From Candidatus Omnitrophota bacterium (GTDB lineage Bacteria; Omnitrophota; Gorgyraeia; 2-01-FULL-45-10): a stretch of 64,000 nt of DNA. Position 1 is the first letter of the stretch; each line of letters opens with the position of its first letter. The notes beneath the pieces are model-generated. The model saw only the letters and a program-made list of their open reading frames with translations, searched no databases and was not told the origin of the DNA. The stretch lies in assembly GCA_041648975.1 (NCBI GenBank), contig JBAZNZ010000004.1, positions 1,779-65,778 of the forward strand. Reading direction: 5' to 3'. Position numbers and translations under genes: made by a program. Of this stretch, positions 10,216-49,221 are shown piece by piece.

Positions 10216-10221
10216 ATCATA

Positions 10222-10280
10222 ATTGTGTAATGTTTATTGTGTAAAGTGTAATGCAAGTTTAATGTTTTATTGTGTAACGG
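10222..10280. repeat. TGTGTAA heptamer array, left arm flanking Avd-like gene 2
   Basis: tgtgtaa tgtttat tgtgtaa agtgtaa ... tgtgtaacgg, then GGAAAATT. Confidence 0.8.
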
Positions 10281-10284
10281 AAAA

Positions 10285-31220: not shown

Positions 31221-31593
31221 TCTTTACCCCTCCTTCTTCGGATAACTTCACCGTATGTTCGTTACCGTCTAAATGTAATATTATAGAGTTCGGGCCGATC
31301 TTCTTTATCACAAGCTCCCCCGTTTTCTCACTTTCCCTGATTATCTCTCCGTTCAATATGGCCAGTCTCTTTCCGTCGGCTCCCATAGCTATTCCTTCGA
31401 GGTTGATCTCATATATCGACGTCACGTCTTTAAGTTTCGTAGTGACGCTCTTCTCCTGGCCTACAAGCGGCACAAGAGGGTCACGTCTCCCGTGCGCATC
31501 GTACCTTATGGCCTCCATGCCATGAAGATACGTGGCCGCCACAAGCGCCGCGAGGGCTAAACCGCTGATCTTACAGGCTCTGAAAAAAAACAT
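31213..31593 (-). CDS. pilP: PilP-like pilus assembly protein
   Basis: Small signal-anchored protein between pilO and pilQ. Confidence 0.55.
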   Translation of the reverse strand: MFFFRACKISGLALAALVAATYLHGMEAIRYDAHGRRDPLVPLVGQEKSVTTKLKDVTSIYEINLEGIAMGADGKRLAILNGEIIRESEKTGELVIKKIGPNSIILHLDGNEHTVKLSEEGGVKSE

Positions 31594-33017: not shown

Positions 33018-34049
33018 TCATCTCAACGCCAATCCTGCGGCGACGCCGTAAGAACCTTTCGATCCTTCCAGGAGTTTCGCGTCTATTCCGGAGGCGCTTT
33101 TATCTAAAAATGCGAGCGGATCCCAGGCGAAAGGCCGGACGCCGAAATATTCCTGAAACAGGTCTTCCAATCCGGCCAGGCCCGAACTGCCGCCCGAAAT
33201 ATAGATCTCGTCGACGCCCCTGCCGTTCTGGTTCTCGTAATAATTGAACGACAACTTCACTTCGTCGAGAAGATTATTGACTACGGGTTTCACCGCATCT
33301 ACTATCGACTGCCGTTTGTCGTGAGGTGATTCCTTGATCTTATCGGATGCCGCATTGTCCACGCCCAGGACCTTTGATATAGCGGCGCTGAACTCATTGC
33401 CGCCTATTGCCAGGTCCCTGATAAAATATGCCGTGCCTTCCCGCACTATGGCCAGATTGGTGAACCTGGCGCCAATATTCAGGATCGCAAAACTCTTATC
33501 CGCGGCGGCATCCGCCTTGTTCCTGGAAAATGAGCCCGCCAGAGCCAGGCTGTCCACATCTACTGCCGCCACCGACAGGCCTGAAGCCTCCGCTGCCTTT
33601 ATCCTGTCTTCGATCATATCTCTTTTAGCGGCTACCAGTATTAAATCTGTCTTGCTCCCGGCCTTGTCCGTACGCAGGACCTGAAAATCCACAACACACT
33701 CGCTTATATTAAAAGGTACGACCTTTTCCGCTTCGAACCTTACCGCGCTCTTCAGCTCATCGTCTTTCATCTTCGGCATCGTCACGAATCTCGCTACGAC
33801 AAACGGACCCGAGACGGAGATATTGGCTTCTTTAGCCGAAAATTTCGATTCCTCGACCAACCGCGTAACCGTTTCTGCCATCTCTATGCGGGAAGCGCCT
33901 CTTACCTTCTTCATCCCTAAGGATATCAATGACGGCGAAATGCCGCCGGATACCTCGACCGCCTTGACGAACGAGCTGCCGATATCAAGCCCTACGATCT
34001 TTTTCGCGCTGGGGCCGTGTCCGGTCTTTCCGAAAGGAGTTTCCGCCAT
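33018..34049 (-). CDS. pilM: Type IV pilus assembly ATPase-fold protein PilM
   Basis: Actin-like fold (IVGLDIGSSFVKAVEV ... DIGARFTNLAIV). Confidence 0.9.
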   Translation of the reverse strand: MAETPFGKTGHGPSAKKIVGLDIGSSFVKAVEVSGGISPSLISLGMKKVRGASRIEMAETVTRLVEESKFSAKEANISVSGPFVVARFVTMPKMKDDELKSAVRFEAEKVVPFNISECVVDFQVLRTDKAGSKTDLILVAAKRDMIEDRIKAAEASGLSVAAVDVDSLALAGSFSRNKADAAADKSFAILNIGARFTNLAIVREGTAYFIRDLAIGGNEFSAAISKVLGVDNAASDKIKESPHDKRQSIVDAVKPVVNNLLDEVKLSFNYYENQNGRGVDEIYISGGSSGLAGLEDLFQEYFGVRPFAWDPLAFLDKSASGIDAKLLEGSKGSYGVAAGLALR

Positions 34050-34549
34050 TATCGTGCCGCTTTATCGTTTGGGCGCTTCGCGCCGGGCTTATAATTAAAC
34101 TCTATCGATACGAGCTTCTTCAACGACTCGGACATCGCCAGCAAATTTTTAGACTTCTTATCATACGGATTCACTTTAAGCGCCTCTTTGCAGCTTTCGA
34201 TCTTATTATCCAATCCATCCATAAATTTTTTCTTGTCTTCAGGGCTTACGTTGGCCCAAGTTTTTACCATATTTACACCGACGTCATCTTCCGGATAATC
34301 CTGATATAAGGTTTGCAGGTCGGGAGGAATCCCTTTCTTTTCCAATGTCCGGTCCGTCCCTGTTCCGGCTTTGTGCCCATAAGCAGGAATGGCTGCGCCT
34401 GGAACCGTCTCTTCCGGCACTATGGCGCGCGCCGGGGCCTTCGTCTCTTTAGCGGAAGTGAAACGAAGCGTCCTGATAAAAAACACAGCCAATGCTATTA
34501 ATATTATAAAGAGCGCTGTATTTATATACACAAGATTCCTGTCTTTCAT
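34049..34549 (-). CDS. Hypothetical membrane-anchored protein inside the pilus locus
   Basis: Single N-terminal TM helix, no recognisable domain. Translationally coupled to the pilM start. Confidence 0.4.
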   Translation of the reverse strand: MKDRNLVYINTALFIILIALAVFFIRTLRFTSAKETKAPARAIVPEETVPGAAIPAYGHKAGTGTDRTLEKKGIPPDLQTLYQDYPEDDVGVNMVKTWANVSPEDKKKFMDGLDNKIESCKEALKVNPYDKKSKNLLAMSESLKKLVSIEFNYKPGAKRPNDKAAR

Positions 34550-34561: not shown

Positions 34562-35929
34562 TCAGTTCTGCTGCCATATCGGCTCGAATTCCGTAGCCTC
34601 GTTCTTAATCCTGAACAAAAGAGATATCCTGTTATAACCCGGGGGCAGTCCCAGGGGCCAGTTCGCCGGATCGGACCAATCGACGTCGCCTCTGTTAATG
34701 TCCCTGTTCAGAAGCCCGGGTATGGGTAATACGGTGTCTATGTCCACATCCCCTTTGGCAAAGATAGCGCCGTCTGTCCTGCCTCCAAATAATGCGTTGA
34801 AATCGCCGTTAGCGTATATGACAATATTGCCTCTAACGCCTCCGAACGCCCTTATGCCGCCGGTATTGACATCGCCATACGACACTATGGTCAGCGTATC
34901 GTCCAAGCCGTTCGTCGGCTGAACTACAGTGACATCCCCCGTAGCTATGATGGTGTGGCTCGAGTCGCCTCCCCACCATGCTGTATCGCTAAAAAGTATA
35001 TCCACACTACCGTCAACAAATATTACAGGCGTACCCACGGGAACACTCCATGGATCGAATGTCTGGGAGCCTGTGTAATAATTTTCTTCGCCGGGCGTTA
35101 TCCCAAGGTCAACCCCCAAAGAGTTATTAGCGGCATCGTCCAGATATGTTGTATAATAATATGTAAAAGCGTCTTTATCATTTATCACGCCGTCGCTGTT
35201 GACATCGTCCGCGCTGAATATCGTTTCCTGCCCCTCTGGGATATCCGCGACGGTTACGCTGCCGTCGCTGTTTATATCCGTTATGAGACTGCCGTCGTTA
35301 TTGGTATCGTATGTATCCCCAAGCCAGAATGAGGGCGCGGAAAAACTCTGGTTCTCCAATGTCTCTCCCGATACCTGCACAAAATTATTTGTCGTAACCG
35401 TCGAACCGCTCGCCAGGGGCCCCTCTGCCCTTACCCATGACCTGAATCCCAGCAATTTCGCACCGGATAAGGACATCGGCCCTATACAGCCAAGCGGATA
35501 ACCGCTGTTAAACGGCGAATCGAAACCATACCTCACTATGACCCTTGACTTACGGCCGTTAACGGTCCCCTCTGACACTATCCCGAATATATCAGTAGTA
35601 ACTACATCGGCACTGGCGGTAAATGTCCCTACGGTCTGGCCTCCCGCGTTTCTCGTCTTCACAACGCTGTCTGCCGACGGCACGGCCAGAGGCCAGATAA
35701 CAGTCTGGCCTTCTTTCGATTTCATCAGGGCATACATTATCTCAGCGCCTGATCTCGCGGCGTAACGCGCGGACATAAGATCATTAGCGATCTTCGTCTG
35801 CAGTATCTCGCCGGACCCCATGCTGACGACAACTCCCGCTATCAGGACGAGCATTACAAGAAACGCGACGACTATAACTATGACAAAACCTTTATTATGT
35901 TTCATATGATACTCTCTGTCAGCTCGCAA
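34562..35929 (-). CDS. PilX-like N-terminal-domain protein with dockerin/EF-hand-like Asp-rich repeats (candidate pilus tip or adhesin component)
   Basis: KGFVIVIVVAFLVMLVLIAGVVVSMGSGEILQT PilX-like N-terminus. Repeats DTNNDGSLITDINSDGSVTV and DDVNSDGVINDKD. Confidence 0.5.
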   Translation of the reverse strand: MRADREYHMKHNKGFVIVIVVAFLVMLVLIAGVVVSMGSGEILQTKIANDLMSARYAARSGAEIMYALMKSKEGQTVIWPLAVPSADSVVKTRNAGGQTVGTFTASADVVTTDIFGIVSEGTVNGRKSRVIVRYGFDSPFNSGYPLGCIGPMSLSGAKLLGFRSWVRAEGPLASGSTVTTNNFVQVSGETLENQSFSAPSFWLGDTYDTNNDGSLITDINSDGSVTVADIPEGQETIFSADDVNSDGVINDKDAFTYYYTTYLDDAANNSLGVDLGITPGEENYYTGSQTFDPWSVPVGTPVIFVDGSVDILFSDTAWWGGDSSHTIIATGDVTVVQPTNGLDDTLTIVSYGDVNTGGIRAFGGVRGNIVIYANGDFNALFGGRTDGAIFAKGDVDIDTVLPIPGLLNRDINRGDVDWSDPANWPLGLPPGYNRISLLFRIKNEATEFEPIWQQN

Positions 35930-36524
35930 CGTTCTTTAATGACACTATATCGCTGTACTCGGCTTTGATATGCTGTCCGCCCGGCCTTGTGCCGGCGATA
36001 TCTTTCTCCACCGTTGCCGTGACTTTGATAAGATTACCGCACCCCAAATATTTCTCAAATTTCAGGTCCGACAATCCGATAGTGGCCATTATCTCATGGA
36101 CAGTTCCGTCATTATCCATATAATACAGCGCGTTCAGCCCGGATGCGGCATCAATGCCAAGATAAAAAGACCTTTCGTTCGAACCATCCGGCTCAAGAGC
36201 GTAATTTATCCTCTGGAGCGAAGGGATATCCGGCTCGGCTATCGCGTTAGCTATACCGTTCCTCCTTTTAAATGTAACCGCGCCCACACTGAATGTCCCA
36301 ACCGTATCATCCATACTGCCTTCCCGGATCGCCGAAAGGGCGATCCTCGCGATCCGCTGGGCTTCGATACGGGGCGACATCTCGTAAAACCAGGACCAGC
36401 TCATCACATATATCGACCATGCCGCCAGAAATATGAACATGGCGATAAAACTTGCCGTCAAAAGCTCTGTTAAAGTGAATGCGCGCCCGGTCCCGGCGTC
36501 AGGAAGACGTATGGTATGCGACAT
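35919..36524 (-). CDS. Prepilin-type minor pilin (PilW/GspJ-like), non-canonical leader
   Basis: GRAFTLTELLTASFIAMFIFLAAW, a class-III-signal-like N-terminus with Glu at +5-equivalent. Confidence 0.55.
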   Translation of the reverse strand: MSHTIRLPDAGTGRAFTLTELLTASFIAMFIFLAAWSIYVMSWSWFYEMSPRIEAQRIARIALSAIREGSMDDTVGTFSVGAVTFKRRNGIANAIAEPDIPSLQRINYALEPDGSNERSFYLGIDAASGLNALYYMDNDGTVHEIMATIGLSDLKFEKYLGCGNLIKVTATVEKDIAGTRPGGQHIKAEYSDIVSLKNVAS

Positions 36525-36999
36525 AGCAAACCGCCCTTTCGCTGCATGCCTGGCCGTTCATATCTTCATTCCATGTTACGACGAAGCCGACGATTTTAAA
36601 AGGAACCCCGATATATGTTATCTGCGTGCCATCGGCATTTTCCACATTATCCGGAAAATAAGGATCCGGAACCAGCGAGCCAACCAGGTCATCGGACGTA
36701 TCGGCCGTACCCCGAGTATCTATCGTAACGGGTGTCGGATCTGCCGAGGATATCGTTTCGTAATAATCGGCTTCGCCTCCGATCCCGCCGTCATATCCCG
36801 CGCGCAATTCCTGTTCCATGTAACCGCTGATGACGTTCATCGCCGCAAGCCTGTGCCTCGCGCGCGAGGCCCCGAGGTTTGAGATGGTAAAAGCGCCGAG
36901 GACGCTTACCAAAAGCGTGCCCAGAAGCACTATACTGATAAGGCTTTCGACCAACGTGAGGCCTTTATTGCCGCGTAAAAAAAATGGCCGCAGTATCAT
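36499..36999 (-). CDS. Prepilin-type minor pilin (PilV-like)
   Basis: NKG|LTLVESLISIVLLGTLLV, a canonical prepilin cleavage/methylation motif. Confidence 0.65.
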   Translation of the reverse strand: MILRPFFLRGNKGLTLVESLISIVLLGTLLVSVLGAFTISNLGASRARHRLAAMNVISGYMEQELRAGYDGGIGGEADYYETISSADPTPVTIDTRGTADTSDDLVGSLVPDPYFPDNVENADGTQITYIGVPFKIVGFVVTWNEDMNGQACSERAVCYVAYHTSS

Positions 37000-37352
37000 G
37001 GCAGTGTATGCCCCTCGCTCTCTTTACTGCATCTCACTTGAGGTTTGTCTCCGACAGGATAGATGGTATATACACCCTTGGAAGGACAAGCCGGCTTGCC
37101 GCCGTCGATGTAGACATAGATCACTTCTTCCTGTTCGATCGAAGGCTGCGTACCGCTCTGGATAGTATTGTCCAGAGCCCACTGTTCAATGGCTCCGTCA
37201 ATCTGTTTCAGGTTATTTATACAGGCATTCTTTGCAGCGGCCCTGCCTGTTTTGAGATAATTAGGGACAACGATTGCGAGGATGATTGCGATCACTAAGA
37301 CCACTATCATCAATTCTACCAAAGTGTAGGACTTGCGGTGGAAGAAGATCAT
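36996..37352 (-). CDS. Pilin paralog with Ser instead of Gly at the -1 cleavage position
   Basis: HRKS|YTLVELMIVVLVIAIILAIVVPNY; shares KNACINNLKQIDGAIEQWALDN and a C-terminal C...GHTLP with the upstream pilin. Confidence 0.6.
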   Translation of the reverse strand: MIFFHRKSYTLVELMIVVLVIAIILAIVVPNYLKTGRAAAKNACINNLKQIDGAIEQWALDNTIQSGTQPSIEQEEVIYVYIDGGKPACPSKGVYTIYPVGDKPQVRCSKESEGHTLP

Positions 37353-37599: not shown

Positions 37600-37968
37600 T
37601 TATAATGTGTGGCCCGTTGTGCTATTCGGACATACCGGAGCAGCAGCCACTGTTGCAGGTGTGGCATACGCAGTAGTTCCGCATGTAGGCCATTTCTTCA
37701 GGTAATCAGGAACAACACCGATCGTAGCGCCGTCTGTATCCTTCACTACGGCATCCGTATCGTTCTTGCCCTGATCTATGGCCCACACCTGGATCGCTCC
37801 CTGTATCTGCTTCAGGTTGCCGATGCAGGCGTTCTTCAACGCAGTCTGCCTTGCTCTGACGAAGTTCGGAATGGCTATCGCCGCCAATAGACCGATAATT
37901 GCGACTACTATCATAATTTCAACAAGCGTAAAGCCTTTCCTGTTCATCTTTATCATCATATATATCAC
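37600..37968 (-). CDS. pilA: Type IV major pilin (PilA-like)
   Basis: NRKG|FTLVEIMIVVAIIGLLAAIAIPNF canonical class III signal. Own consensus promoter; two downstream terminator hairpins. Confidence 0.75.
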   Translation of the reverse strand: MIYMMIKMNRKGFTLVEIMIVVAIIGLLAAIAIPNFVRARQTALKNACIGNLKQIQGAIQVWAIDQGKNDTDAVVKDTDGATIGVVPDYLKKWPTCGTTAYATPATVAAAPVCPNSTTGHTL

Positions 37969-38125: not shown

Positions 38126-39340
38126 CTACACTCCCATGACAGCGGTTATTTTGAATATCGGCAGGAACATACATATAACAATCGACCCTATAACAATACC
38201 CAAAAATGCTATTATAAGGGGCTCTATAAGGCTTGTCAGGGCGCTTACCGAAGAATCTACCTGTTCATCATAAAAATCGGCTATTTTTGACAGCATTTTC
38301 TCCAACTGACCTGATTGTTCGCCCACAAGGACCATCCTGGTAACCATAGGAGGAAATATCTTTGACCTTGCCAATGGCTGAGCTATACTTTCTCCTTCCT
38401 TAACACTCGTTCGAACATCATCTATGGCCTTTTCAACTACCTTATTTCCCGATGTTTTGCTGACTATTTCAAGCGACGCAAGTATTGGGACACCCGATTT
38501 TATAAGAGTAGCGAGAGTCCTGGTAAATTTGCTTATGGCAACCTTTCTGAACAGGATGCCAAAGATCGGCATTTTTAGCATAAATGAATCGAGCCGGAAC
38601 CGCCCTTTTTCTGTTTTAAGGAACTTGTTAAGCATAAATCCGCCGGCAATCAATCCTATAAATATCACCGCCGCGAATTTCTGGAGCGCATCGCTGATAC
38701 TGAGCAGGATACGGGTCGGCATTGGCAACTCTGCCCCAAATCCTTCAAATATGGTCCTGAATACAGGCACCACCTTCCATAGAAGAACGAAAGTAATACC
38801 AATAGCCATTAAACTGACTATAGCCGGATAGACAAGAGCTGATTTCACCTTCTTTTGAAGAGAGCTCGTCTTTTCCAGGTATTCCGCAAGTCGGTCGAGT
38901 ATCTCGTCCAACATACCGCTCGATTCGCCGGCTTTTACCATATTCACAAACAGGGACGAGAAGATGTTTTTCTGCTTTGACATGGCGTCTGAAAGGCTGG
39001 CGCCCGCCTCCACGTCGCTTCGCACATTAACGACGATGGCGGCAAAGGCCTTGTTGTCCATCTGCTCACCGAGAATATCAAGCCCTCCTACAAGAGGTAT
39101 GCCCGCATCCACCATAGTGGCAAGCTGCCGCGAGAATATCACTATATCATCCAATTTTACTTTCTTCTTGCCGCCGAGCAGGGAGGGAAATTTAAAACCG
39201 GAAACCTGTTCGCTGACCGAAACTATAATGACATCTTTTTTCCTGAGTATATCTATGACTTCCGCGCGGTTCTTTGCCTCAATGGTCCCGGTTACCGCAT
39301 TCCCGCTATTGTCTTTTGCCGCATATTTGAACTTTCCCAT
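38126..39340 (-). CDS. pilC: Type IV pilus inner-membrane platform protein PilC (GspF family)
   Basis: Two GspF repeats, about 400 aa, adjacent to pilB. Confidence 0.9.
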   Translation of the reverse strand: MGKFKYAAKDNSGNAVTGTIEAKNRAEVIDILRKKDVIIVSVSEQVSGFKFPSLLGGKKKVKLDDIVIFSRQLATMVDAGIPLVGGLDILGEQMDNKAFAAIVVNVRSDVEAGASLSDAMSKQKNIFSSLFVNMVKAGESSGMLDEILDRLAEYLEKTSSLQKKVKSALVYPAIVSLMAIGITFVLLWKVVPVFRTIFEGFGAELPMPTRILLSISDALQKFAAVIFIGLIAGGFMLNKFLKTEKGRFRLDSFMLKMPIFGILFRKVAISKFTRTLATLIKSGVPILASLEIVSKTSGNKVVEKAIDDVRTSVKEGESIAQPLARSKIFPPMVTRMVLVGEQSGQLEKMLSKIADFYDEQVDSSVSALTSLIEPLIIAFLGIVIGSIVICMFLPIFKITAVMGV

Positions 39341-39341: not shown

Positions 39342-41066
39342 TCAATCCTCCGAAGTGACTCTCAAGACCTCTTCGAACGTCGTGACACCGTTCACAAAAT
39401 TCTCTATGGCATTATCCCTCAGTGTCTTCATATGGAGCTCTTTTACGGCGTAATTTTTTATATCGTCACTGCCGCTCTTTTTCATTACCATATCGCGTAT
39501 AGAATCATCAAGAAGGAGGGCTTCGAGAATACCTATCCTTCCATAATATCCCGTATCGCTGCATTTAGGGCAGCCCCTGCCCTTAAAAAATACCTTTCTG
39601 TCTTTTTTAACCACTTCATCGATATTAAAGCCTGCCCTTTCAAATACGTTCTTCGGGATCTCGACTTCCATTTTACAATTAGGGCATATCTTCCTCATGA
39701 GGCGCTGCGCCGACGACAAGACAAGGCTCGACGCGACAAGGAAAGGCTCGACTCCCATATCTATCAGGCGGGTTATCGCGCCCGCTGAATCGTTAGTGTG
39801 CAGGGTGCTGAGGATCAGCTGCCCGGTAAGCGAGGCCTTGATAGCGATATCCGCGGTCTCAAAATCCCTTATCTCTCCCACCATCACTATGTCCGGGCTC
39901 TGCCTCAATACGGACTTAAGGCCGTTTGCGAAAGTCAACCCTATCTCGGACCTTGCCTGTATCTGAGTAATGCCTTCCACCTCATACTCGACCGGATCCT
40001 CAAGAGTAATTATATTGCGTTCCGGCGTGTTAAGCTGCGTTACTATCGAATAGAGCGTCGTCGATTTTCCGCTGCCTGTAGGGCCGGTAACAAGTATCAT
40101 ACCGTACGGCCTTTCAAGCGCGGTCTTAAAGGTGCCAAGCGGGCCCGGCAGGAATCCGAGCTTATCCAGCCCGATGCTTAGGCTCGATTTGTCGAGCGCC
40201 CTTAAAACTATCTTTCCGCCGAACGCCACGGGAAGAACCGACACCCTGAAGTCTATCTCGTTCCCCAGAAAGTTTATCCGGAAACGTCCGTCCTGCGGCA
40301 TCCTCGTCTCGGTGATGTCGAGCCTTGACAGGATCTTAAGGCGCGCCAGGACGGCGTTCTGGTTCTTCTTAGGCAGTGAAAATACATCGTGCAGGCTGCC
40401 GTCTATCCTGTATCGTATCCTCAGGTTCTTCTCGCACGGTTCGATATGTATATCGCTCGCGCGGCGTTTCAAGGCTTCATTCAATATCAGGCCCACCATC
40501 TTTACGATCGGCGCGCTTTTCGATTCTTCGGCTACCTCGCTTATATCGACCCTGTCTTCCTCTTCCACCTTCTCTATCTCTACGGCCTCCGAAGAGACCT
40601 CCTCCAGGAGCTTTGTTATCTCCTGCGCATGGCCCCCGTAATAGTTATGTATCCCCTGCATGATGTCGTTCTCTGTGGCTATCACAGGGTCTATCTGGAA
40701 ATGGGTAAGCATCTTTATATCGTCTATCGCGAGTATATTAAGCGGGTCCGACATAGCTATCGTAAGGACGCCGCCGATCTTCGATACGGGTATTATCGAA
40801 TACTGCCTGGCCATCTTCTCCGGGATCAGCGGGATAAGCGACTTATCTATCTTATATTTCGTCAGGTCTATAGGAGGCATGTTAAGCTGGCGGCTCATCA
40901 CCACCATGAGGTCCTTTTCCGATACGAAACCGTTCCCGATCAATATCTTTCCAAGACTTCCTCCGGATTTTTTCTGTATCTCGAGGGCGCGGTCAAGATC
41001 CTTCTGCTTTACCATCTTACCGTTAACCAGAAGGTCTATGAGCTTATATCTGAATGATTCTATCAT
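39342..41066 (-). CDS. pilB: Type IV pilus assembly ATPase PilB (GspE family), copy 1
   Basis: Two N-terminal GSPII_E_N domains, Walker A GPTGSGKSTT, Asp box, His box, tetracysteine CPNC...CPKC. Confidence 0.9.
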   Translation of the reverse strand: MIESFRYKLIDLLVNGKMVKQKDLDRALEIQKKSGGSLGKILIGNGFVSEKDLMVVMSRQLNMPPIDLTKYKIDKSLIPLIPEKMARQYSIIPVSKIGGVLTIAMSDPLNILAIDDIKMLTHFQIDPVIATENDIMQGIHNYYGGHAQEITKLLEEVSSEAVEIEKVEEEDRVDISEVAEESKSAPIVKMVGLILNEALKRRASDIHIEPCEKNLRIRYRIDGSLHDVFSLPKKNQNAVLARLKILSRLDITETRMPQDGRFRINFLGNEIDFRVSVLPVAFGGKIVLRALDKSSLSIGLDKLGFLPGPLGTFKTALERPYGMILVTGPTGSGKSTTLYSIVTQLNTPERNIITLEDPVEYEVEGITQIQARSEIGLTFANGLKSVLRQSPDIVMVGEIRDFETADIAIKASLTGQLILSTLHTNDSAGAITRLIDMGVEPFLVASSLVLSSAQRLMRKICPNCKMEVEIPKNVFERAGFNIDEVVKKDRKVFFKGRGCPKCSDTGYYGRIGILEALLLDDSIRDMVMKKSGSDDIKNYAVKELHMKTLRDNAIENFVNGVTTFEEVLRVTSED

Positions 41067-42790
41067 ACCGTATCCAGGTCCTGTTCCCCGACTGTTACCC
41101 GAAGCACCTCGTCCAGGGTTGTCACGCCGTCGAGCGCGTTCTGCATCCCGTTCTCCCTGAGAGTCTTCATGCCTTCACGCCTGGCCTCTTCCCGTATCTT
41201 ATATTCCTGGGCTTCTTCCAGTATAAGGACCTTTATTCTTGAAGTTACCGGCAAAACTTCAAGTAACGCCGTCCTTCCCTTATAACCCGTGCCCAGGCAT
41301 TTATTGCACCCTTTGCCGCGATAGAACTTAACGCCCTTCTTATCAGTATCTATCTTAAGCTTTTCGGCCATATCTTTGCCGAGTTCGAAAGGCTCTTTGC
41401 AGCTCAGGCATATCTTGCGGACAAGCCTCTGCGCGCCTACCATTATTAAGGATGAGGTTATTAAGAACGGTTCGACGCCCATGTTAATAAGGCGGACTAT
41501 GGAACCGGTAGCCGTCGTCGTATGCAGTGTGCTTAAGACCAGGTGGCCCGTCAAGGCCGACTTGATCGCTATATCGACAGTCTCGAAGTCCCTTATCTCC
41601 CCTATCATTATAACATTCGGGTCCTGGCGCAATATCGAGCGTAAGACACTCGCGAAAGTAAGCCCGATATCGGGTTTTGCGGCGACCTGATTTATGCCTT
41701 CGATTATATACTCCACAGGATCTTCGACAGTGACGATATTCTTTTCGGGAGAATTCACATGCTGCATTACCGAATAAAGGGTGGTGGTCTTGCCGCATCC
41801 GGTCGGCCCGCATATCAGGATCATACCGTGCGGCTTTGAATCGGCTTTCTTTATCTCCTCCAGGGACCGGGTGTCAAATCCCAGCTTCTCTATATCAAGG
41901 GTAGCCTGGGACTTGTCCAGGATCCTCAACGCGACTTTTTCCCCGCGGCTGGACGGAAGAACCGAGACCCTGAAGTCCACTTCCCTGCCGCTCAACTTTA
42001 CCTTAAACCTTCCGTCTTGAGGCAGTCGTCTTTCCGCTATGTCCAGGTCCGACATTACCTTTATCCTGGATATTATGGCGTTCTGGAATGCCTTCGGCGA
42101 CCGCTTGCCTTCGCGCCATATGCCGTCAACGCGGTATCTTATACGGACCTCGGTGTCGAGAGGCTCGATAAGTATATCGCTGGAACGCATTGAAACGCCT
42201 TCCGCGAGAAGCATATTGGTGATCTTGACCACAGGCGCATCCTGGGTCATCCTCAATATGTCTGTGGAACTCTGCGATTCTTCGCCGGAGAGATTATCAA
42301 TAAGCTTCAGGTCATCGATATCGCCCACTATCTTCTCTATCGCCGCATAAGCATCCTCGTCATAATAATGGCCGAGCGCCTCCCTGATATCCTTTTCATA
42401 CGCGATGACCGGGCTTATTTTATATCCCGTGAGCGTCTTTATATCGTCTATCGCGAATATATTAAGAGGATCAGCCATGGCTATCATCAAGGTGTCTCCG
42501 ATCTTCGATATCGGCAGGATCATGTAATTTCTCGCTGTCTTTCTCGGCACCAATTTTATGACAGCGGGATCTATCTTATAGCGTGAGAGGTTTATAGGAG
42601 GTATGCCGAGCCCCTGGCTAAGTGTAACCATCAGGTCGCTTTTCGATACAAGGCCCAGGCTGATAAGTATATCGCTTAAAGACCCGCCCTTTTCCTTCTG
42701 GAATGAAATGGCCTTTTCGAGATCGGCAGGTTTAATGAGCTTCTTATCGACCAGTAATTTCGCAAGTTTCTCTTTTAATTCTGTAGCCAT
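41063..42790 (-). CDS. pilB: GspE-family pilus/secretion ATPase, tandem paralog of pilB (copy 2)
   Basis: Same architecture as copy 1 (GPTGCGKTTT, CLSC...CNKC). The two proteins are clearly divergent paralogs. Confidence 0.85.
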   Translation of the reverse strand: MATELKEKLAKLLVDKKLIKPADLEKAISFQKEKGGSLSDILISLGLVSKSDLMVTLSQGLGIPPINLSRYKIDPAVIKLVPRKTARNYMILPISKIGDTLMIAMADPLNIFAIDDIKTLTGYKISPVIAYEKDIREALGHYYDEDAYAAIEKIVGDIDDLKLIDNLSGEESQSSTDILRMTQDAPVVKITNMLLAEGVSMRSSDILIEPLDTEVRIRYRVDGIWREGKRSPKAFQNAIISRIKVMSDLDIAERRLPQDGRFKVKLSGREVDFRVSVLPSSRGEKVALRILDKSQATLDIEKLGFDTRSLEEIKKADSKPHGMILICGPTGCGKTTTLYSVMQHVNSPEKNIVTVEDPVEYIIEGINQVAAKPDIGLTFASVLRSILRQDPNVIMIGEIRDFETVDIAIKSALTGHLVLSTLHTTTATGSIVRLINMGVEPFLITSSLIMVGAQRLVRKICLSCKEPFELGKDMAEKLKIDTDKKGVKFYRGKGCNKCLGTGYKGRTALLEVLPVTSRIKVLILEEAQEYKIREEARREGMKTLRENGMQNALDGVTTLDEVLRVTVGEQDLDTV

Positions 42791-42825: not shown

Positions 42826-43275
42826 TCAATGGCGGTTATAGTTCTTGCTTATCGCGTTAGTCACGTCGGTCATCGTGCTCACGAAGACCTGGACCTTGCA
42901 CTTCGTAAGCATCTCTATATCCTCAACTGCCTGGAAATTCAGCGGATTCGACATCGCTATCGTAAGGAGGTCGCCTATTTTATCTATAGCTATAAGGTTA
43001 TATTGTTTAGCGACGTGCTCGGGTATCATCTTGACGGCTTCGCTATTCACCTCATAAAATTCCAGAGGAAGATAGGGGAAACCGTATTGGACGGTCAGGG
43101 CCTGCGCTATCTCCTCTTCCTTGGCGAAACCCATCGCGACCATTATCTGGCCTATCAGGCCGCCCTTCTCCTCCTGAACCTTCAAGGCCTTAGCCAATTG
43201 CGACTCGTTTATCACGCCTCTTTCCAGTAGAAGTTCACCCAATTGTTTCGAGACAATACGTCTTATTGGAGACAT
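42826..43275 (-). CDS. Stand-alone GSPII_E N-terminal (MshEN-like) domain protein
   Basis: Two tandem N-domain repeats and nothing else. First repeat QLGELLLERGVINESQLAKALKVQ fits the MshEN c-di-GMP-binding motif except R to Q at position 1. Confidence 0.6.
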   Translation of the reverse strand: MSPIRRIVSKQLGELLLERGVINESQLAKALKVQEEKGGLIGQIMVAMGFAKEEEIAQALTVQYGFPYLPLEFYEVNSEAVKMIPEHVAKQYNLIAIDKIGDLLTIAMSNPLNFQAVEDIEMLTKCKVQVFVSTMTDVTNAISKNYNRH

Positions 43276-43296: not shown

Positions 43297-44361
43297 CTAC
43301 TTTTTAAATATCCTCTTAAGATCATCGACATCAGTGGATCTCTCAAGTGCCTCTTCGTAAGATATAAGCTTCTTCTGGTATAGTTCATAAAGGGCCTGGT
43401 TCATTGTCCTCATGCCCTCTTTCTGCGAGGTCTGCATGACGGAATATATCTGATGGATCTTAGACTCCCTGATCATGCTGCGTACAGCGGCCGTGATCAA
43501 TAAAATCTCTACAGCCAGGACGCGGCCGTGGCCTCCGACCTTCGGCAGCAACTGCTGGGCCATAACGCCTATAAGGACAAATGAAAGCTGCGTCCTTATC
43601 TGGGCCTGCTGATAAGCGGGAAAGACGTCTATGAGCCTGTTTATCGTCTGGACGCAATCCGATGTATGGAGCGTGGCAAAAACGAGGTGGCCTGTCTCTG
43701 CGATTATAAGCGCGGATTCTATCGTCTCGAGATCCCTTAATTCCCCTATTAATATTACATCGGGATCCTGGCGCAGGACATGTTTAAGGGCCCCGGTAAA
43801 TGAATAGGTGTCGCTTCCAAGCTCGCGCTGGTTGACAATGGCCTTTTTATTCCTGTGAAGATACTCTATAGGGTCTTCGACTGTTACAATGTGACACGGC
43901 CTTGCGGCGTTTATCGAATCTATCATCGATGCCAGGCTCGTCGATTTTCCGCTTCCGGTAGCGCCTGTGACAAGCACGAGCCCTTTCGGACGGTTACATA
44001 AGTCCTTCACGACATCGATAGGCAGGCCGCATTCTTCTAACGGCCATATGTCGTGCGGTATCACCCTTATCGAGCACGCGATAGAGTCCCTCTGCTTGAA
44101 GACATTCACCCTGAACCGGCCCAGGCCGGATACTCCGAAAGCCAGATCAAGCTCCAATTCGCGCTCGAACTTCTCTTTCTGCGCGTCGTTCAGCAACTTA
44201 TAGGTCAGCTCTTTCGATTCCACCGGGGTGAGGATACCTCCTTCAACCGGGATGAGTTTTTCGTCTACGCGTATAACGACCGGCGCTCCCGCGGTAATAT
44301 GGATATCCGAAGCGCCTTTCTCTACCATCATCTTCAATAGCTTATTCATGTCGTGAGGCAT
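43297..44361 (-). CDS. pilT: Twitching motility ATPase PilT
   Basis: PilT length (354 aa), Walker A GATGSGKST and PilT-type N-terminus. Confidence 0.9.
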   Translation of the reverse strand: MPHDMNKLLKMMVEKGASDIHITAGAPVVIRVDEKLIPVEGGILTPVESKELTYKLLNDAQKEKFERELELDLAFGVSGLGRFRVNVFKQRDSIACSIRVIPHDIWPLEECGLPIDVVKDLCNRPKGLVLVTGATGSGKSTSLASMIDSINAARPCHIVTVEDPIEYLHRNKKAIVNQRELGSDTYSFTGALKHVLRQDPDVILIGELRDLETIESALIIAETGHLVFATLHTSDCVQTINRLIDVFPAYQQAQIRTQLSFVLIGVMAQQLLPKVGGHGRVLAVEILLITAAVRSMIRESKIHQIYSVMQTSQKEGMRTMNQALYELYQKKLISYEEALERSTDVDDLKRIFKK

Positions 44362-44392: not shown

Positions 44393-45808
44393 TTAAGCGA
44401 AGACCCTGTTCTTCCCGGCCGTCTTCGCCTCTTTGAGTAAATTCATGGCCTTTTTATATAATTCGTCTCCGGTCGCCCCGTCGATCGGGTTTTCGCTGAC
44501 ACCGCATGAAACGGTAAGCGCGGCCTTACCTACTCTTACGAGATTCGCGGCTTCTATCCTTTTCCTAAGGTCTTCGGCGATATCGGTCGCCTCTTTCTTG
44601 TTCTTCTCCGGCATGAGGACAGCGAATTCATCCACGCCGACCCTCGCCGCCTTGCCTACCGGCGGGATATTGTCCTTTATCAGCTTGGCCATCTTATTCA
44701 GAGCCTCTTCTGCGGCCAGCTCACCGTGCGTCTCCCTGAAGTTCTTGAAATTGTCGATATTAAATACGATGAACGCGCAAGGCCTCTGATAGAATATCGA
44801 GCGCTTTATCTCTTCCTCGAGCCGTGTGACGATAAAATTCTTATTATAAAGGTCTGTCAAATCGTCTTTTATCGAAAGCTCTTCGGTCTTCCTGTTCAAT
44901 ATGTCGCTCTCGATAGCTATCGTTATCTGTTTTGCGAATACCTTGATCATCTCTATATCGTCGTTCTTGAATTTGAAATCATCGGCCCTGCTGCCGACGA
45001 TAAAAAGCCCCAGGTTATTTCGTCCGGAAAACAAAGGGACGGCTATGATATTCTTTAATCCGTATCCGGCCTTCAACTCTTCCACCTCTTTCGACGGCTT
45101 CATCCCTTTATCCAGGACAAAAATAGCGCGTTCCTGCACGGCCCTTTCCAGGACACTGCGGCCGGTCTTCCTGATCACCAGGTTATCGAGGCTCTCCTTA
45201 TCGAGGTTGTAAGAGGTCTTTACCGAAAAATCCCCATTCCCCGCCTTGGGCATGTACAGCGCGCCGAAACCTGTATCGAATACCAGCGAGGACTTTTCCG
45301 TTATCATCTCCAGCAGCGGGTCGAGCTGTATGGAGCCTGCCGAGATCATGTCCCCGACCTGCAGGAGGCTCGACAATGCCAGGACCTTTTTGTTTATGTC
45401 TACATTTATCTCCCGCATCCTCTGTCCGTAATTCTTCAGTTCATCCAGGTTCGATCTTATCTTCTGGGTCATGGTGTTTATCGAATATGCCAGGTTGCCT
45501 ATTTCGTCTTCGCTCGACACAGACAGTTTCCTGTCATATTCGCCGTTGGCCATTATCTTGGCCTCGATAGCCATATCAATTACGGGATCCACCAGCCCCT
45601 TAGCCAGGGCAAGGCCCAGAATAGCTATTATTATCGAAGAGACCAGCACGACACTTATGGTAGATATTCCGTCGAGATTCGGAAAAACATAAGTCGAGAT
45701 AATATACATCGAAGCGAGGAGAGGTATGATAGACATCAGGCTGAAGGCGAGAAGAAGTTTGTATCTCAAACCCTTGTGGACTATGGTTAAACGCTTGAAG
45801 ATATTCAT
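44393..45808 (-). CDS. Membrane HAMP-GAF-GGDEF domain protein with degenerate GVDEF motif
   Basis: TM helix, HAMP, GAF-like region. GGDEF fold where the RYGGEEF position reads RVGVDEF and no RxxD I-site is present. Confidence 0.75.
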   Translation of the reverse strand: MNIFKRLTIVHKGLRYKLLLAFSLMSIIPLLASMYIISTYVFPNLDGISTISVVLVSSIIIAILGLALAKGLVDPVIDMAIEAKIMANGEYDRKLSVSSEDEIGNLAYSINTMTQKIRSNLDELKNYGQRMREINVDINKKVLALSSLLQVGDMISAGSIQLDPLLEMITEKSSLVFDTGFGALYMPKAGNGDFSVKTSYNLDKESLDNLVIRKTGRSVLERAVQERAIFVLDKGMKPSKEVEELKAGYGLKNIIAVPLFSGRNNLGLFIVGSRADDFKFKNDDIEMIKVFAKQITIAIESDILNRKTEELSIKDDLTDLYNKNFIVTRLEEEIKRSIFYQRPCAFIVFNIDNFKNFRETHGELAAEEALNKMAKLIKDNIPPVGKAARVGVDEFAVLMPEKNKKEATDIAEDLRKRIEAANLVRVGKAALTVSCGVSENPIDGATGDELYKKAMNLLKEAKTAGKNRVFA

Positions 45809-45898
45809 AATATCCTCCTAAATGAGATTATATCCCTAATATATTAATTTTATGGAAAGTATACTATATATATGGCAGTTTGTCAAACAGGGGGCGCT

Positions 45899-47587
45899 TC
45901 AAGATGTTATGATGATAAAATCCCAGGGCAATATTTCATCGGAAAGCCGGGCCCTGCCGGCATAGAACGAGTGGTCGACGCCTGCCTTCTCGAACGCCGC
46001 CATCCAGAGATCGAAATTGAACCTGTCTTTCCATCCGTCAAAACGCGCGCCGGACTTCCAGGCCTCATACACAACAGCGGCAAGAGCCCTGTCCCCTCTC
46101 GAAAAGACAGCTTCAAGATAACTCATCTTGACGGAATGAAAATCCATTTCGACCATCTTTGACCTCATCGACTTCCGCAATAAGTCGATCTTTTTATTCA
46201 GGATAGCGGCGCTGTCCATGGGCTCTCTCTGAAAAGGCGTGTGCGGCTTCGGGACGAAGGCATTTATGCTGGCGGTGATGTGGGCGGACTTTCCGTCAAC
46301 CTCCCTCTTAAGGTCGGAGATCTTGTATATCATCTCAGATATCGAGAGCAGGTCTTTCTCGGTTTCGCCCGGCAGTCCTATCATAAAATATAGTTTTACG
46401 TGCCGCCACCCGGCCTTATAAGATTCCAGCGCGGCGTGAAACAGTTTTTCTATGTCGATACCTTTATTAAGCGACTTCCTCAATTCGGGAGTTCCGGCCT
46501 CCGGCGCGAACGTAAGGCCCGCCTTCTTAACATTCGATATCAGGAGCGGCAGGTTTTTAAGCGCATCCTCTATCCTGAGCGACGGCACGGATATGGACAC
46601 GGACCGAGGGCCGAACTCTTCGTTAAGGCGCGCCATGATCTCCGGCAGGCGGGAATGGTCGACGCTGGAAAGAGAGAGAAGAGATATCTCGTCGTAGCCC
46701 GTCCGGGCGTAAGATTCCCGGGCAAGCTCCAGGATCTTCCCTACCGACCTTTCGCGGCAGGGCCTGTACGTAACCGTAGCCTGGCAGAATTTACACCCGT
46801 GTTTGCATCCGCGCATTATTTCAATTATCAGCCTGTCGTGGATTATCTGGATATTCGGGACTATCTGCTTGACCGGATAATACGCGTCATCTAGATTTCC
46901 GACAAATCGTTTTATTATCTTTGCCGGAGCGTCTTTCTCGATAATGGAAAATTTCTTCGGCGTTCCGTCTTCATTATATTCTGTATTATAAAATGACGGA
47001 ACATAAATACCTTTTATTTTGGAAAGGCGCGTCAATAATTCTTTTCTCGACTCTCCGGCCTTGTACGCATCCACGATCTCCGAGATGACCTCTTCCCCGT
47101 CGCCGATAACGAATGCGTCGATAAATTCCGCTATCGGCTCGGGGTTGTAACAGGAAGGGCCGCCCGCTATGATCAGCGGATCCTCATCCGTCCGTTCCGG
47201 CGCCCTCAGCGGGATCCGCCCAAGGTCCAGCATGTTCAGCACATTGGTATATCCGAGTTCATAGGTAACGCTGAACCCTATTATGTCAAAATCTTTAATG
47301 GGCCTTCTCGTCTCAAGACTAAAGAGGTCGAGATTATTTTTTCTTAAAACATCTTCGAAATCGCCCCATGGAGAAAAAACTCTTTCGCAAAGGCAGTCAT
47401 CCCGGTCATTCAGTATCCCGTATAATATCTTTGTCCCGAGATAACTCATCCCCACTTCATAGAGGTCGGGAAACGCGAGGAGCACCTTAACCTTATCGTC
47501 CGTCCACTCCTTCCGGACAGAGTTCCACTCCCCTCCGCAATACCTCCCGGGCTTCTGCACCGTCAGCAATAATTCTTCAAGATTCAT
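45899..47587 (-). CDS. Radical SAM protein, TIGR03960-like (B12-binding-like N-domain + radical SAM core)
   Basis: CKHGCKFC (CxxxCxxC) motif and family-typical N-terminus LLTVQKPGRYCGGEWNSV. Confidence 0.8.
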   Translation of the reverse strand: MNLEELLLTVQKPGRYCGGEWNSVRKEWTDDKVKVLLAFPDLYEVGMSYLGTKILYGILNDRDDCLCERVFSPWGDFEDVLRKNNLDLFSLETRRPIKDFDIIGFSVTYELGYTNVLNMLDLGRIPLRAPERTDEDPLIIAGGPSCYNPEPIAEFIDAFVIGDGEEVISEIVDAYKAGESRKELLTRLSKIKGIYVPSFYNTEYNEDGTPKKFSIIEKDAPAKIIKRFVGNLDDAYYPVKQIVPNIQIIHDRLIIEIMRGCKHGCKFCQATVTYRPCRERSVGKILELARESYARTGYDEISLLSLSSVDHSRLPEIMARLNEEFGPRSVSISVPSLRIEDALKNLPLLISNVKKAGLTFAPEAGTPELRKSLNKGIDIEKLFHAALESYKAGWRHVKLYFMIGLPGETEKDLLSISEMIYKISDLKREVDGKSAHITASINAFVPKPHTPFQREPMDSAAILNKKIDLLRKSMRSKMVEMDFHSVKMSYLEAVFSRGDRALAAVVYEAWKSGARFDGWKDRFNFDLWMAAFEKAGVDHSFYAGRARLSDEILPWDFIIITS

Positions 47588-47935: not shown

Positions 47936-48152
47936 CACTTCCTTTTGCCGGCCAGGTTCGCTTTTCGCTCACCTGGCCGTCCTCCAACCTGCTTCCCACA
48001 AAGACCTAATATTATTCCCGCCCGGAAACATACGCGGGGCGGGATCCCGCCTCGCGTTAGATTCTAGGCGGGACAATGTGCTCACATAACGTCGGCTTAG
48101 GTTTTTAGCACTAAATTAACGTCCTTATAGGTCATCCCTACGAGATCATATT

Positions 48153-48947
48153 TCAATTATTGCCTATAGTCTTTTGCTCAATGTTTTCTGCTTGAGTAAA
48201 ATATTTTGATAAATTTGCAGTAAAAAATCTATTATTTTTTTGAAATATCTTTTTGAATTCGCTCTCTTTATCCTTTTTATAATATTTTCTGAATCCATTT
48301 GCGAGAGAATGGGCCATCTTCACGCAATATTCTGAATCATCTGCTTCTGAGATACTAACTACTAGCGCTTCTTCGCCCTTAAAATAAGGGGCGTTTGCAT
48401 ACCTGTTAACAGCTTTTGATACCCCCCGCAGTCTTTCATCTATCCACCTTCTCGCTTGCTCCTCAATTATTTCACGTTCTCTAATTTTTAATGAATATCT
48501 GTCGTATTTTATAAAAATATTATTTATTCTTTCTTTACAAGACACAATATCAAATATTGAATGTACAAGCGTCAAGCCATACGAAACTAGCCATACATAA
48601 TTATTTAAGGATGATATTTCTTTATTATTAAGCAAACTACTATTTTTTCGAGCCTCATATGCCTTGATAATAATATCACGGATTTTAGAATCGCTAAAAT
48701 TATAATATACGACATTAGCATACAATCTATGTCTCGTTAATATATCATTTAACATAATAAGATCATTATAAGAAGCTCCGCTTTTTCGTTCACAAAATTT
48801 ATATTGTTCTTTTTCTAATAACTCAACGTTTCCCCCGAGGTGACTTATTACAGCAAAACAAAAACAATTATCCTCTTGCTCTAACTCCTTATATCCTGAT
48901 TCATCACTAAAACAATATAGAGGATTACCTACGATCGCATCATTCAT
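48153..48947 (-). CDS. DUF3800-like hypothetical protein on an AT-rich insert
   Basis: N-terminal PLYCFSDESGY resembles the DUF3800 hh.DESG start. Composition is strongly AT-rich relative to flanks. Own promoter-like TTGATG-16-TATTAT. Confidence 0.55.
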   Translation of the reverse strand: MNDAIVGNPLYCFSDESGYKELEQEDNCFCFAVISHLGGNVELLEKEQYKFCERKSGASYNDLIMLNDILTRHRLYANVVYYNFSDSKIRDIIIKAYEARKNSSLLNNKEISSLNNYVWLVSYGLTLVHSIFDIVSCKERINNIFIKYDRYSLKIREREIIEEQARRWIDERLRGVSKAVNRYANAPYFKGEEALVVSISEADDSEYCVKMAHSLANGFRKYYKKDKESEFKKIFQKNNRFFTANLSKYFTQAENIEQKTIGNN

Positions 48948-49012
48948 TATTATTCACCATATCTTAATTGTACACCGTCTTTACTAAAATATTTAACCAG
49001 TTATTTGGATAA

Positions 49013-49040
49013 ATAATATCTATTACTAAGAAAGCATCAA
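49013..49040 (-). promoter_or_regulatory. Candidate promoter of the DUF3800 gene (TTGATG-16-TATTAT)
   Basis: Minus strand reads cTTGATGctttcttagtaatagaTATTATttatcc, with an AT-rich leader and SD GGTGA. Confidence 0.35.
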
Positions 49041-49060
49041 GTTCGCGCTGCTTCTATATG

Positions 49061-49140
49061 AAAATTTTTACGGGTGATGCTCCTTCCAGACTTTTTCTCG
49101 ATAAGGGCGAAGTTTGGGATGGGGCAGTACAGATACGCGC
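49061..49140. repeat. Inner repeat copy D, an inverted and partly deleted copy of the 47780-47935 segment
   Basis: aaaatttttacgggtgatgctccttccagactttttctcgataagggcgaag...gggatggggcag..agatacgcgc is the reverse complement of ...gcgcgtatct...ccccatccc...cttcgccctttatcgagaaaaagtctggaaggagcgtcacccgtaaaaaatt. Confidence 0.8.
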
Positions 49141-49221
49141 ACAGAATATACCTTAATGTCATGACTTCAGTGTCAAGTTAGACCGTTATCTACACCTTTT
49201 AGTATAAAGAAATAGGGAGAT

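Follow-up and report, generated by a model that had tools for sequence, protein, structure and literature searches.

What does the N-terminal domain of a type IV pilus motor do when it is made as a protein of its own? The question is raised by a small gene, here called mshEN, in a 64,000-nucleotide stretch of a Candidatus Omnitrophota genome (contig JBAZNZ010000004.1, positions 1,779 to 65,778). This whole stretch is referred to as the window, and coordinates are those of the window unless another locus is named. The gene lies in a type IVa pilus cluster next to two pilB genes, and its product is a free-standing MshEN domain, the type of domain that in MshE of Vibrio cholerae binds cyclic di-GMP (c-di-GMP). 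Judged by sequence, the free MshEN protein retains all of the residues that are critical in mutagenesis of MshE and PilF, and these residues have been lost from the N1 domains that both PilB proteins carry in cis. We propose that the free domain may be a separate c-di-GMP-sensing subunit of the type IVa pilus extension motor of Omnitrophota, a reading that the evidence favors by a modest degree. That the protein binds c-di-GMP we consider probable; whether it would act in trans on the motor or its platform is, to our minds, evenly poised.

Domain structure and conservation of the free MshEN protein

The gene and the parts of its product are located as follows:

42826..43275, minus strand: mshEN-like gene, with an ATG start and a TGA stop (42826-42828), encoding 149 amino acids (aa)
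43174..43245, minus strand: motif I, residues 11-34, QLGELLLERGVINESQLAKALKVQ, taken straight from the sequence
43159..43173, minus strand: spacer, residues 35-39, EEKGG, five residues as in MshE (PMC5013675)
43087..43158, minus strand: motif II, residues 40-63, LIGQIMVAMGFAKEEEIAQALTVQ, a looser match
42829..43086, minus strand: linker YGFPYLPL and MshEN_C/T2SSE_N1 alpha/beta subdomain, residues 64-149, with a Pfam match at residues 64-147

The product is one complete MshEN/GSPII domain, in which two 24-residue motifs separated by a 5-residue spacer are followed by a T2SSE_N1 subdomain. The original prediction had described a 149-aa protein made only of the repeats. Its length and sequence were correct, but the repeats are not all of it: the four-helix MshEN_N subdomain consists of residues 11-63, which hold the motifs, and is followed by the alpha/beta T2SSE_N1 (MshEN_C) subdomain at residues 64-149. 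Motif I had been said to fit the c-di-GMP consensus RLGxx(L/V/I)(L/V/I)xxG(L/V/I)(L/V/I)xxxxLxxxLxxQ everywhere except at its first residue, and every constrained position does fit, with Gln replacing Arg at position 1. Motif II, which had been called looser, fails the strict consensus at positions 1, 2 (I), 6 (M), 12 (A) and 17 (I). Position 1 is Leu, which is permitted by an extended (R/K/L) consensus, and position 6 is Met in the window protein and Leu in most orthologs. The Phe at position 11 is outside the form of the consensus given in the abstract of the MshEN paper and is allowed by that paper's VcMshEN form. What experiments mark as critical in motif II is still there: Gly at position 3 and at position 10, Gln at 24, and a hydrophobic residue at both 17 and 21.

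Profile searches matched both subdomains, at scores well past what chance would give. Pfam MshEN (PF05157) gave 59.7 bits (E 2.8e-16; gathering score 23.1) over residues 64-147, and NCBIfam NF053729, a 53-residue model of the c-di-GMP motif pair, gave 57.0 bits against a cut-off of 38 over residues 11-63 (model positions 1-53 of 53). A sequence search of the PDB matched the MshE N-domain (5HTL) at E 2.7e-18, and the free protein aligned over its full length with the N-domains of MshE, PilB and PilF. An AlphaFold2 model with a mean pLDDT of 75, in which residues 1-8 are unreliable, contained helices at 8-18, 24-37, 41-48 and 53-64, followed by a beta-alpha unit. Its best Foldseek match was 5HTL (MshE with c-di-GMP; E 2.8e-10, TM 0.65-0.69), followed by 9G1W (PilF GSPII-A) and 8PDK/8PFA, this top set having E values of 1e-9 to 1e-10. 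Thus, the predicted structure matches the two-subdomain MshEN fold.

Pfam found no T2SSE ATPase domain in the free protein. The PilB model TIGR02538 gave 74.3 bits, far below its cut-off of 675.65, and covered model positions 2-137 only. Therefore, the label 'type IV pilus assembly protein PilB' that close relatives carry in JGI is an over-annotation; the identical 149-aa protein, known from the Ca. Omnitrophota metagenome-assembled genome GCA_028715235.1 and from an ENA metagenome contig, is called 'hypothetical protein' in NCBI. These proteins of ~150 aa deserve a family name of their own.

The gene had been placed between pilT and pilB, and this position was borne out by the open reading frame (ORF) map and Pfam, with the second pilB gene next:

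43297..44361, minus strand: pilT, retraction ATPase without an N1 domain (NCBIfam TIGR01420, 475.7 bits against a cut-off of 319)
41063..42790, minus strand: pilB1, extension ATPase with a degenerate MshEN motif (A10, S39, G60) (Pfam T2SSE and MshEN)
39342..41066, minus strand: pilB2, second extension ATPase, with Ile in place of the motif I Gly (Pfam T2SSE and MshEN)

The upstream gene, pilT, ends 21 nt before the mshEN start codon. PilB1 and PilB2 are full-length paralogs that are 49% identical and encoded in tandem with a 4-bp overlap; a Walker A motif and Cys clusters are present in each, and their TIGR02538 scores fall slightly short of the cut-off. The pair is kept across Omnitrophota, and one may ask whether the two proteins form hetero-hexamers or divide the labor.

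More than 3000 homologs of the free protein were found at E<=1e-5, and the best 120 were all 145-157 aa long and 76-87% identical to it, apart from the identical window protein. To follow the gene within the phylum, we used orthologs from 28 Omnitrophota genomes of a species-representative collection, giving 29 sequences with that of the window. In all 28 genomes, mshEN was directly upstream of pilB1-pilB2-pilC, and it was preceded by pilT wherever pilT was present; in the five loci from which pilT was missing (L022 and L026-L029), it directly followed the GGDEF gene. Thus, co-occurrence with pilus loci, which had been proposed as a check, was found as a (GGDEF)-(pilT)-mshEN-pilB-pilB-pilC order in 28 genomes. 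In these genomes and in deeper relatives the gene has its own start, stop and Shine-Dalgarno-like sequence, and encodes a protein of the same length. In 24 of the 28 genomes, the free MshEN protein ranked first in conservation among the proteins of the locus; its mean identity was 72.7%, compared with 71.1% for PilT, 68.2% for PilB2, 66.2% for PilB1, 63.7% for PilC and 53.0% for the GGDEF protein. A library clustered at 50% identity contained many MshEN matches of 140-200 aa, from which only loci with complete genes were relied on; counts of stand-alone MshEN proteins in metagenome collections are inflated, because some (P0251, locus L034) are contig-end fragments of pilB. No other protein of the locus is as strongly constrained as the free MshEN protein, and these comparisons of gene order and sequence indicate that mshEN is almost certainly a real, stand-alone gene dedicated to the pilus.

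Predicted ligand-contact residues in the free protein and in the PilB pair

In characterized MshEN domains, the backbone amides of the motif Gly and the residue following it read O6 and N7 of guanine (PMC5013675). The MshE substitution G11L abolishes c-di-GMP binding and G40I weakens it 72-fold (PMC5013675 supplement). For PilF GSPII-A, Ser at position 1 of motif II abolishes binding, and a Gly-to-Ala change costs ~10-fold (PMC12002112); Ile at positions 17/21 costs only 2.4-fold in PilF. Conservation of the motif residues among orthologs had been set beforehand as the point on which the receptor prediction could fail, and the contact residues proved to be conserved both in the 29 sequences and in the 120 close homologs. 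In motif I, G13, L31 and Q34 were present in 29/29 sequences, and L12 and L27 in 28/29. In motif II, G42, G49, I56 and Q63 were invariant, L40 was found in 28/29 and L60 in 27/29. Positions 2, 17 and 21 of both motifs were hydrophobic in 27-29 of the 29 sequences. The Gly at position 10, which forms a helix-helix turn of the bundle and makes no ligand contact, was present in 23/29 sequences in motif I and in 29/29 in motif II. Outside the motifs, spacer residues G38 and G39 were invariant in the 120 close homologs, and the most conserved stretch was the linker YGFPYLPL (mean column identity 0.93); column conservation was 0.78-0.93 in the C-subdomain and linker, compared with 0.82 in the motif region. 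N110, which aligns with D266 of PilF GSPII-B (the equivalent of D108 of MshE; PMC11731258), was also invariant.

The N-domains of PilB1 and PilB2 had been said to match the motif less well. They scored 51.1 and 44.5 bits on NF053729, respectively, and their critical glycines are gone. PilB1 has the position-3 Gly of motif I in 1/29 sequences and that of motif II in 3/29, and the position-24 Gln of motif II in none of the 29. In PilB2, none of 22 sequences has the motif I Gly, and I, V, L or T stands in its place. In both proteins, motif II begins with Ser (GGSLS in PilB1, GGSLG in PilB2), resembling GSPII-A. The same contrast between the free protein and PilB was found in deeper relatives. The PilB N-domains keep the fold and its hydrophobic core without the contact residues, so the fold does not require them; that the free protein holds them invariant is thus a sign of ligand binding and not of structure alone. 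Predictions of c-di-GMP-responsive PilB proteins should accordingly check the critical Gly and Gln residues and not rely on hidden Markov model scores.

The free MshEN protein is 31-35% identical to the neighboring PilB N-domains, which share 53% identity between themselves. These values ruled out a recent duplication of the adjacent PilB N-domain.

Signal input, related loci and competing explanations

If the free protein binds c-di-GMP, a source of the nucleotide is expected, and the gene that heads the putative operon encodes a GGDEF protein:

44393..45808, minus strand: HAMP-GAF-GGDEF gene, degenerate (signature GVDEF), first in the putative operon (Pfam domains)
45858..45886, minus strand: sigma-70-like promoter match TTGACA-17-TATACT, 11/12, upstream of the GGDEF gene, from a consensus scan only
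38126..39340, minus strand: pilC, platform protein (Pfam T2SSF)

From the promoter match onward, no terminator-like site was found on the minus strand upstream of the pilC start; the sole such site between the promoter and pilC is weak (5 pairs, 3 GC) and lies within pilC (39097-39084). By this arrangement, mshEN appears to be cotranscribed with the sensor gene, pilT, the two pilB genes and pilC.

Compared with PleD, the HAMP-GAF-GGDEF protein has D327N, N335R and D344E changes, lacks the RxxD I-site and has GVDEF in place of GGEEF. Its signature also drifts among orthologs (GGDEF, SGDEF, AGDEF, SGFEF, GPNQF and DSDSL). Because key catalytic and substrate-binding residues are gone and the signature drifts, it is not a credible cyclase, and for this clade we abandoned the idea that it supplies c-di-GMP locally. 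To judge from these residues, its function is probably that of a sensor or scaffold without catalysis.

In relatives that are 38-51% identical to the free protein, the core mshEN-pilB arrangement is kept and the upstream signaling gene differs: L035 has REC-mshEN-pilB-pilB-pilC, L038 (51% identical) has rodA-mshEN-pilB-pilB-mshEN-pilC, L043 has rodA-pilT-mshEN-pilB, and L040 (GCA_029263055.1, 40% identity) has rodA-GGDEF-mshEN-pilB-pilC-PAS kinase-sigma54 regulator with 4-bp overlaps. Since mshEN and pilB are kept while their neighbors vary, the conserved unit is mshEN plus pilB, with a lineage-specific input gene. In L038, the two free mshEN copies (6001-6456 and 10034-10486 of that locus) flank the pilB pair, giving one free domain per PilB paralog. 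In L040, the GGDEF gene (5090-6004) encodes a 304-aa protein with canonical DID, ND, RxxD (RRYD) and GGDEF elements, and it shares 4 bp with the start of mshEN. This coupling suggests that an active cyclase joined to a free sensor may be the ancestral arrangement.

Other members of the subfamily in the 50%-identity library (P0147, P0158, P0205, P0246, P0249 and P0161) are fused to other domains. They include MshEN-PilZ, X-MshEN-PilZ and MshEN-PilZ-DUF7305 proteins and one relative fused to a DnaA-type ATPase domain; these PilZ and DnaA-type fusions are absent from the 2016 catalog of MshEN architectures. The PilZ-fused relatives link the subfamily, on domain composition, to c-di-GMP signaling and to partners of PilB. 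The 723-aa P0158 had been considered as an MshEN-PilB1 fusion, as 149+575 residues would give ~724, and was rejected when Pfam showed MshEN-PilZ-DUF7305.

Several observations weigh against c-di-GMP as the ligand of the free MshEN protein. Both PilB N-domains, despite their lost glycines, still score above the NF053729 cut-off. The neighboring GGDEF domain is degenerate, and Pfam searches of most ORFs of the window revealed no other GGDEF, EAL, HD-GYP or PilZ gene; an Rfam scan of 20 kb likewise found no family, c-di-GMP riboswitches included. The Gln at position 1 of motif I, found in 112/120 close homologs (and as Q24, P3, K1, L1 in the 29 sequences), is outside both the R/K/L set (PMC11731258) and the relaxed [RKPN] set of Wang et al. 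(PMC5013675). This position is occupied in MshE by R9, which stacks on guanine, and substitutions of R9, D12 or Q32 change affinity less than fivefold (PMC5013675). PilF GSPII-B has Lys and Leu at the two position-1 sites and binds with 6 nM affinity; K167L improves this to 2 nM and K167R weakens it 25-fold, so the consensus was extended to (R/K/L) (PMC11731258). Motif II of the free protein starts with Leu, as does that of GSPII-B (L196; PMC11731258). Because the position accepts Lys and Leu with higher affinity in GSPII-B, and because R9 changes cost MshE so little, the Arg-to-Gln difference in motif I probably matters little and, on these comparisons, should not be disqualifying. The guanine-contacting Asp of the C-subdomain (D108 of MshE, D266 of PilF) is an invariant Asn in the free protein; this contact is dispensable in MshE and worth ~4-9-fold in PilF. 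Finally, the best single-domain sequence match in the PDB (61 bits) is PilF GSPII-A, a non-binder that stayed inactive after six mutations had restored a perfect consensus (PMC12002112). A near-consensus motif therefore looks necessary and not sufficient. In GSPII-A, helix alpha1 has an additional, N-capped turn that packs against alpha7 of the C-subdomain. The free protein lacks an ideal N-cap, having R6 and S9 where GSPII-A has T5 and D8, and it has a conserved Ile-Val at the place of GSPII-A I6.

The example of GSPII-A, which shares the fold and a near-consensus motif without binding, leads directly to an alternative that we regard as unlikely, i.e., that the free protein is a ligand-independent adaptor or decoy whose motif residues are conserved as builders of the four-helix bundle. 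It might compete with the PilB N1 domains for PilM/PilC, chaperone PilB N1 as Xanthomonas PilZ does, or serve as a docking domain for PilT. Xanthomonas citri offers a precedent in PilZ, a small partner of PilB N1 that does not itself bind (PMC11656802), and both the degenerate GGDEF neighbor, with no other c-di-GMP gene in the window scans, and the C-subdomain and linker, whose conservation is on a par with that of the motif region (0.78-0.93 against 0.82), would suit such a role. However, the invariant residues of the free protein are the ligand contacts (Gly 3 and Gln 24), whereas the non-contact Gly 10 varies in motif I, even though it is invariant in motif II. The PilB N-domains keep the fold and have lost precisely the contact residues. 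Moreover, GSPII-A is off consensus at both Gln positions and at positions 1 and 3 of motif II, where the free protein is not, and the gene for a distant ortholog shows translational coupling to a canonical GGDEF gene.

The two ligand-facing positions that are consistently non-canonical, Q11 and N110, would also fit a shift of specificity, making the free protein a receptor for another cyclic dinucleotide, such as 3'3'-cyclic GMP-AMP (cGAMP), or for another nucleotide. MshEN does bind cGAMP, weakly (dissociation constant 3.3e-4 M; PMC5013675). We consider this reading improbable: both half-sites keep the Gly/backbone geometry for guanine O6/N7 and both Gln residues, the Asp-to-Asn change affects a single auxiliary contact, which MshE can do without, and no signature of cGAMP, other CD-NTase or Hypr-GGDEF enzymes was seen in the locus. 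Still further from the evidence, and in our estimate very nearly negligible, is the view that mshEN is a non-functional leftover, i.e., a fragment of a third pilB gene or of a pilB with two MshEN domains, or a segment joined to PilB1 by read-through or frameshift. PilB proteins with two to four MshEN domains do exist (PMC5013675 Supplementary Table 4; P0121), and some apparent stand-alone database matches, such as P0251, are pilB fragments at contig ends. Nevertheless, in 28 genomes and deeper relatives, mshEN is a separate ORF of constant length that has a start, a stop and a Shine-Dalgarno-like sequence to itself; it encodes the most conserved protein of the locus, and its 31-35% identity to the PilB N-domains speaks against a recent duplicate. 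Read-through or frameshifting into pilB1 was ruled out by the stop codon, the 35-nt spacer and the different frame, the two starts being 485 nt apart, and the long relatives examined included no fusion of MshEN to PilB within this subfamily.

Pilus cluster, proposed role and known systems

The pilus cluster of the window is complete and of type IVa, and every gene of it is on the minus strand, in the order HAMP-GAF-GGDEF, pilT, mshEN, pilB1, pilB2, pilC, pilins, pilM, pilO and pilQ secretin. The genes downstream of pilC are:

37600-37968, 36996-37352, 36499-36999 and 35919-36524, minus strand: pilin and minor pilin genes (N_methyl and pilin family matches)
33018..34049, minus strand: pilM, candidate docking partner for N1/MshEN_C domains (Pfam PilM_2, E 4.3e-52)
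31617-32195, minus strand: pilO (Pfam PilO)
31213-31593, minus strand: small ORF between pilO and pilQ
29544-31220, minus strand: pilQ secretin (Pfam Secretin, Secretin_N and STN)

A 201-aa ORF among the pilin genes has a prepilin-like N-terminus (FTLTELL). Three further minus-strand ORFs of the cluster (32216-32896, 34049-34549 and 34562-35929; 226, 166 and 455 aa, respectively) had no Pfam match, and those of 226 and 455 aa had no NCBIfam match either; the 226-aa ORF occupies the place expected for pilN, between pilM and pilO. Upstream of the cluster, 45899-47587 (minus strand) encodes a B12-binding radical SAM protein of the uncharacterized TIGR03960 family (716 bits), whose place between rodA and the pilus operon is kept in most Omnitrophota loci examined. 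Between rodA and this gene lies a low-GC islet (48000-49200; GC 0.32-0.36, compared with ~0.48 around it) with a 264-aa ORF (48153-48947, minus strand) that had no match in Pfam, NCBIfam or PADLOC. This ORF was found only in the two loci that carry the window's own sequence and not in the other Omnitrophota genomes; the islet is probably a recent insertion.

In the role that we propose for the free MshEN protein, one c-di-GMP would be held between the two 24-residue motifs, with the backbone amides of G13 and G42 contacting the guanines, L12, L27, L31, I41, I56 and L60 forming hydrophobic clusters, and Q34 and Q63 contacting ribose and phosphate. As in PilF GSPII-B, binding would unwind the first turn of helix alpha1 and change how the two subdomains are oriented. 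The next step would be contact with the PilB1/PilB2 motor or the PilM/PilC platform, made through the N1-type subdomain and the invariant YGFPYLPL linker, so that the level of c-di-GMP, or the input of an upstream sensor, might be coupled to the choice between pilus extension and retraction. The upstream membrane sensor would be the HAMP-GAF-degenerate GGDEF protein in the window, and a REC or intact GGDEF protein elsewhere. We infer, by analogy with the GspE-GspL structures of type II secretion systems (T2SS), that the N1 domain may dock on the stator/PilM, which is the current view for PilB (PMC11656802). A more speculative picture, which we hold to be possible if doubtful, is that of a split motor, in which a diffusible N1 sensor, sometimes present in two copies, would load onto or compete with two c-di-GMP-blind PilB paralogs and act as a clutch that chooses PilB1, PilB2 or PilT for PilM/PilC, with the variable upstream gene as its input.

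Omnitrophota are ultra-small and putatively predatory or parasitic; nearly all have type IVa pili, which are believed to serve in attaching to host cells and moving on them (PMC10066038). A pilus regulator therefore bears on the lifestyle of these bacteria. Within the open-access literature, we found no description of a stand-alone MshEN pilus regulator or of c-di-GMP signaling in Omnitrophota. The MshEN domain family itself is well known, and many of its architectures have been cataloged (PMC5013675); in the open-access literature on MshEN, PilB cofactors and Omnitrophota genomics, we found no description of a free, complete MshEN within a pilus motor operon, of its phylum-wide conservation, or of the reciprocal loss of the site from PilB.

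Among known systems, the N-domain of MshE of V. cholerae (5HTL) is the best structural match. It has the two-subdomain fold of the free protein and, like it, two 24-residue motifs in tandem with 5 residues between them; the Leu-Gly, hydrophobic and Gln contacts fall at the same positions (PMC5013675). However, in MshE this domain is the N-terminus of a T2SSE ATPase, whereas the free protein has no ATPase; the two are ~28% identical, the position-1 Arg of both motifs is replaced by Gln and Leu in the free protein, and Asp108 is replaced by Asn. PilF GSPII-B of Thermus thermophilus (8PDK) has a very similar motif pair (KLGELLLQKG...EQ / EKTGD / LLGRILV...), the 5-residue spacer and the fold, and it too has Arg in neither motif and a Leu at the start of motif II; unlike the free protein, it is the middle of three domains fused to the PilF ATPase, and it has Lys at position 1 of motif I and D266-R268 where the free protein has Gln and N110-L112. 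GSPII-A (9G1W), the second-best structural match, shares a hydrophobic residue before motif I that is able to pack on the C-subdomain. It differs in having H33, R62, S39 and A41, where the free protein has Q34, Q63, L40 and G42, and the N-cap L4-T5-I6-G7-D8-K9.

The nearest precedent for a free-standing MshEN receptor is PA3740 of Pseudomonas aeruginosa, an ATPase-less protein with an MshEN and a diverged T2SSE_N1 domain that is listed as binding c-di-GMP experimentally and is linked to swarming (PMC5013675 supplement). Its second subdomain is highly diverged, in contrast to the canonical T2SSE_N1 of the free protein (Pfam 59.7 bits). We found no description of complementary motif loss in cognate PilB proteins for PA3740, and a location in a pilus operon is unreported in the MshEN papers. 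The PilZ-FimX-PilB(N1) complex of X. citri (7LKO) also combines a small free protein with a multidomain, degenerate-GGDEF protein (PMC11656802). There, however, the small protein is a PilZ beta-barrel that fails to bind c-di-GMP, the site being in the FimX EAL domain, whereas in the window binding is predicted for the small protein itself; the likeness is at most a loose analogy. Lastly, residues 64-149 have the same N1 fold as T2SS GspE N1 bound to GspL (2BH1 and 4PHT), with weak Foldseek matches, and this likeness suggests possible docking to PilM or a GspL-like platform. In GspE, the N1 domain belongs to the ATPase itself, and c-di-GMP binding is missing from many GspE N-domains (XpsE; PMC5013675).

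What the PilB N1/MshEN domain contributes to extension is, according to a review, poorly understood (PMC11656802); the domain is flexible, and all systems studied have it covalently attached to the motor. A free, extremely conserved, predicted sensor together with attached copies that lack the ligand site amounts to a natural separation-of-function experiment, with separate polypeptides for binding, docking and motor activation. Set beside MshE, PilF, PA3740 and GspE, the Omnitrophota protein is not a new kind of system; it is a clean, testable natural split of a poorly understood motor domain.

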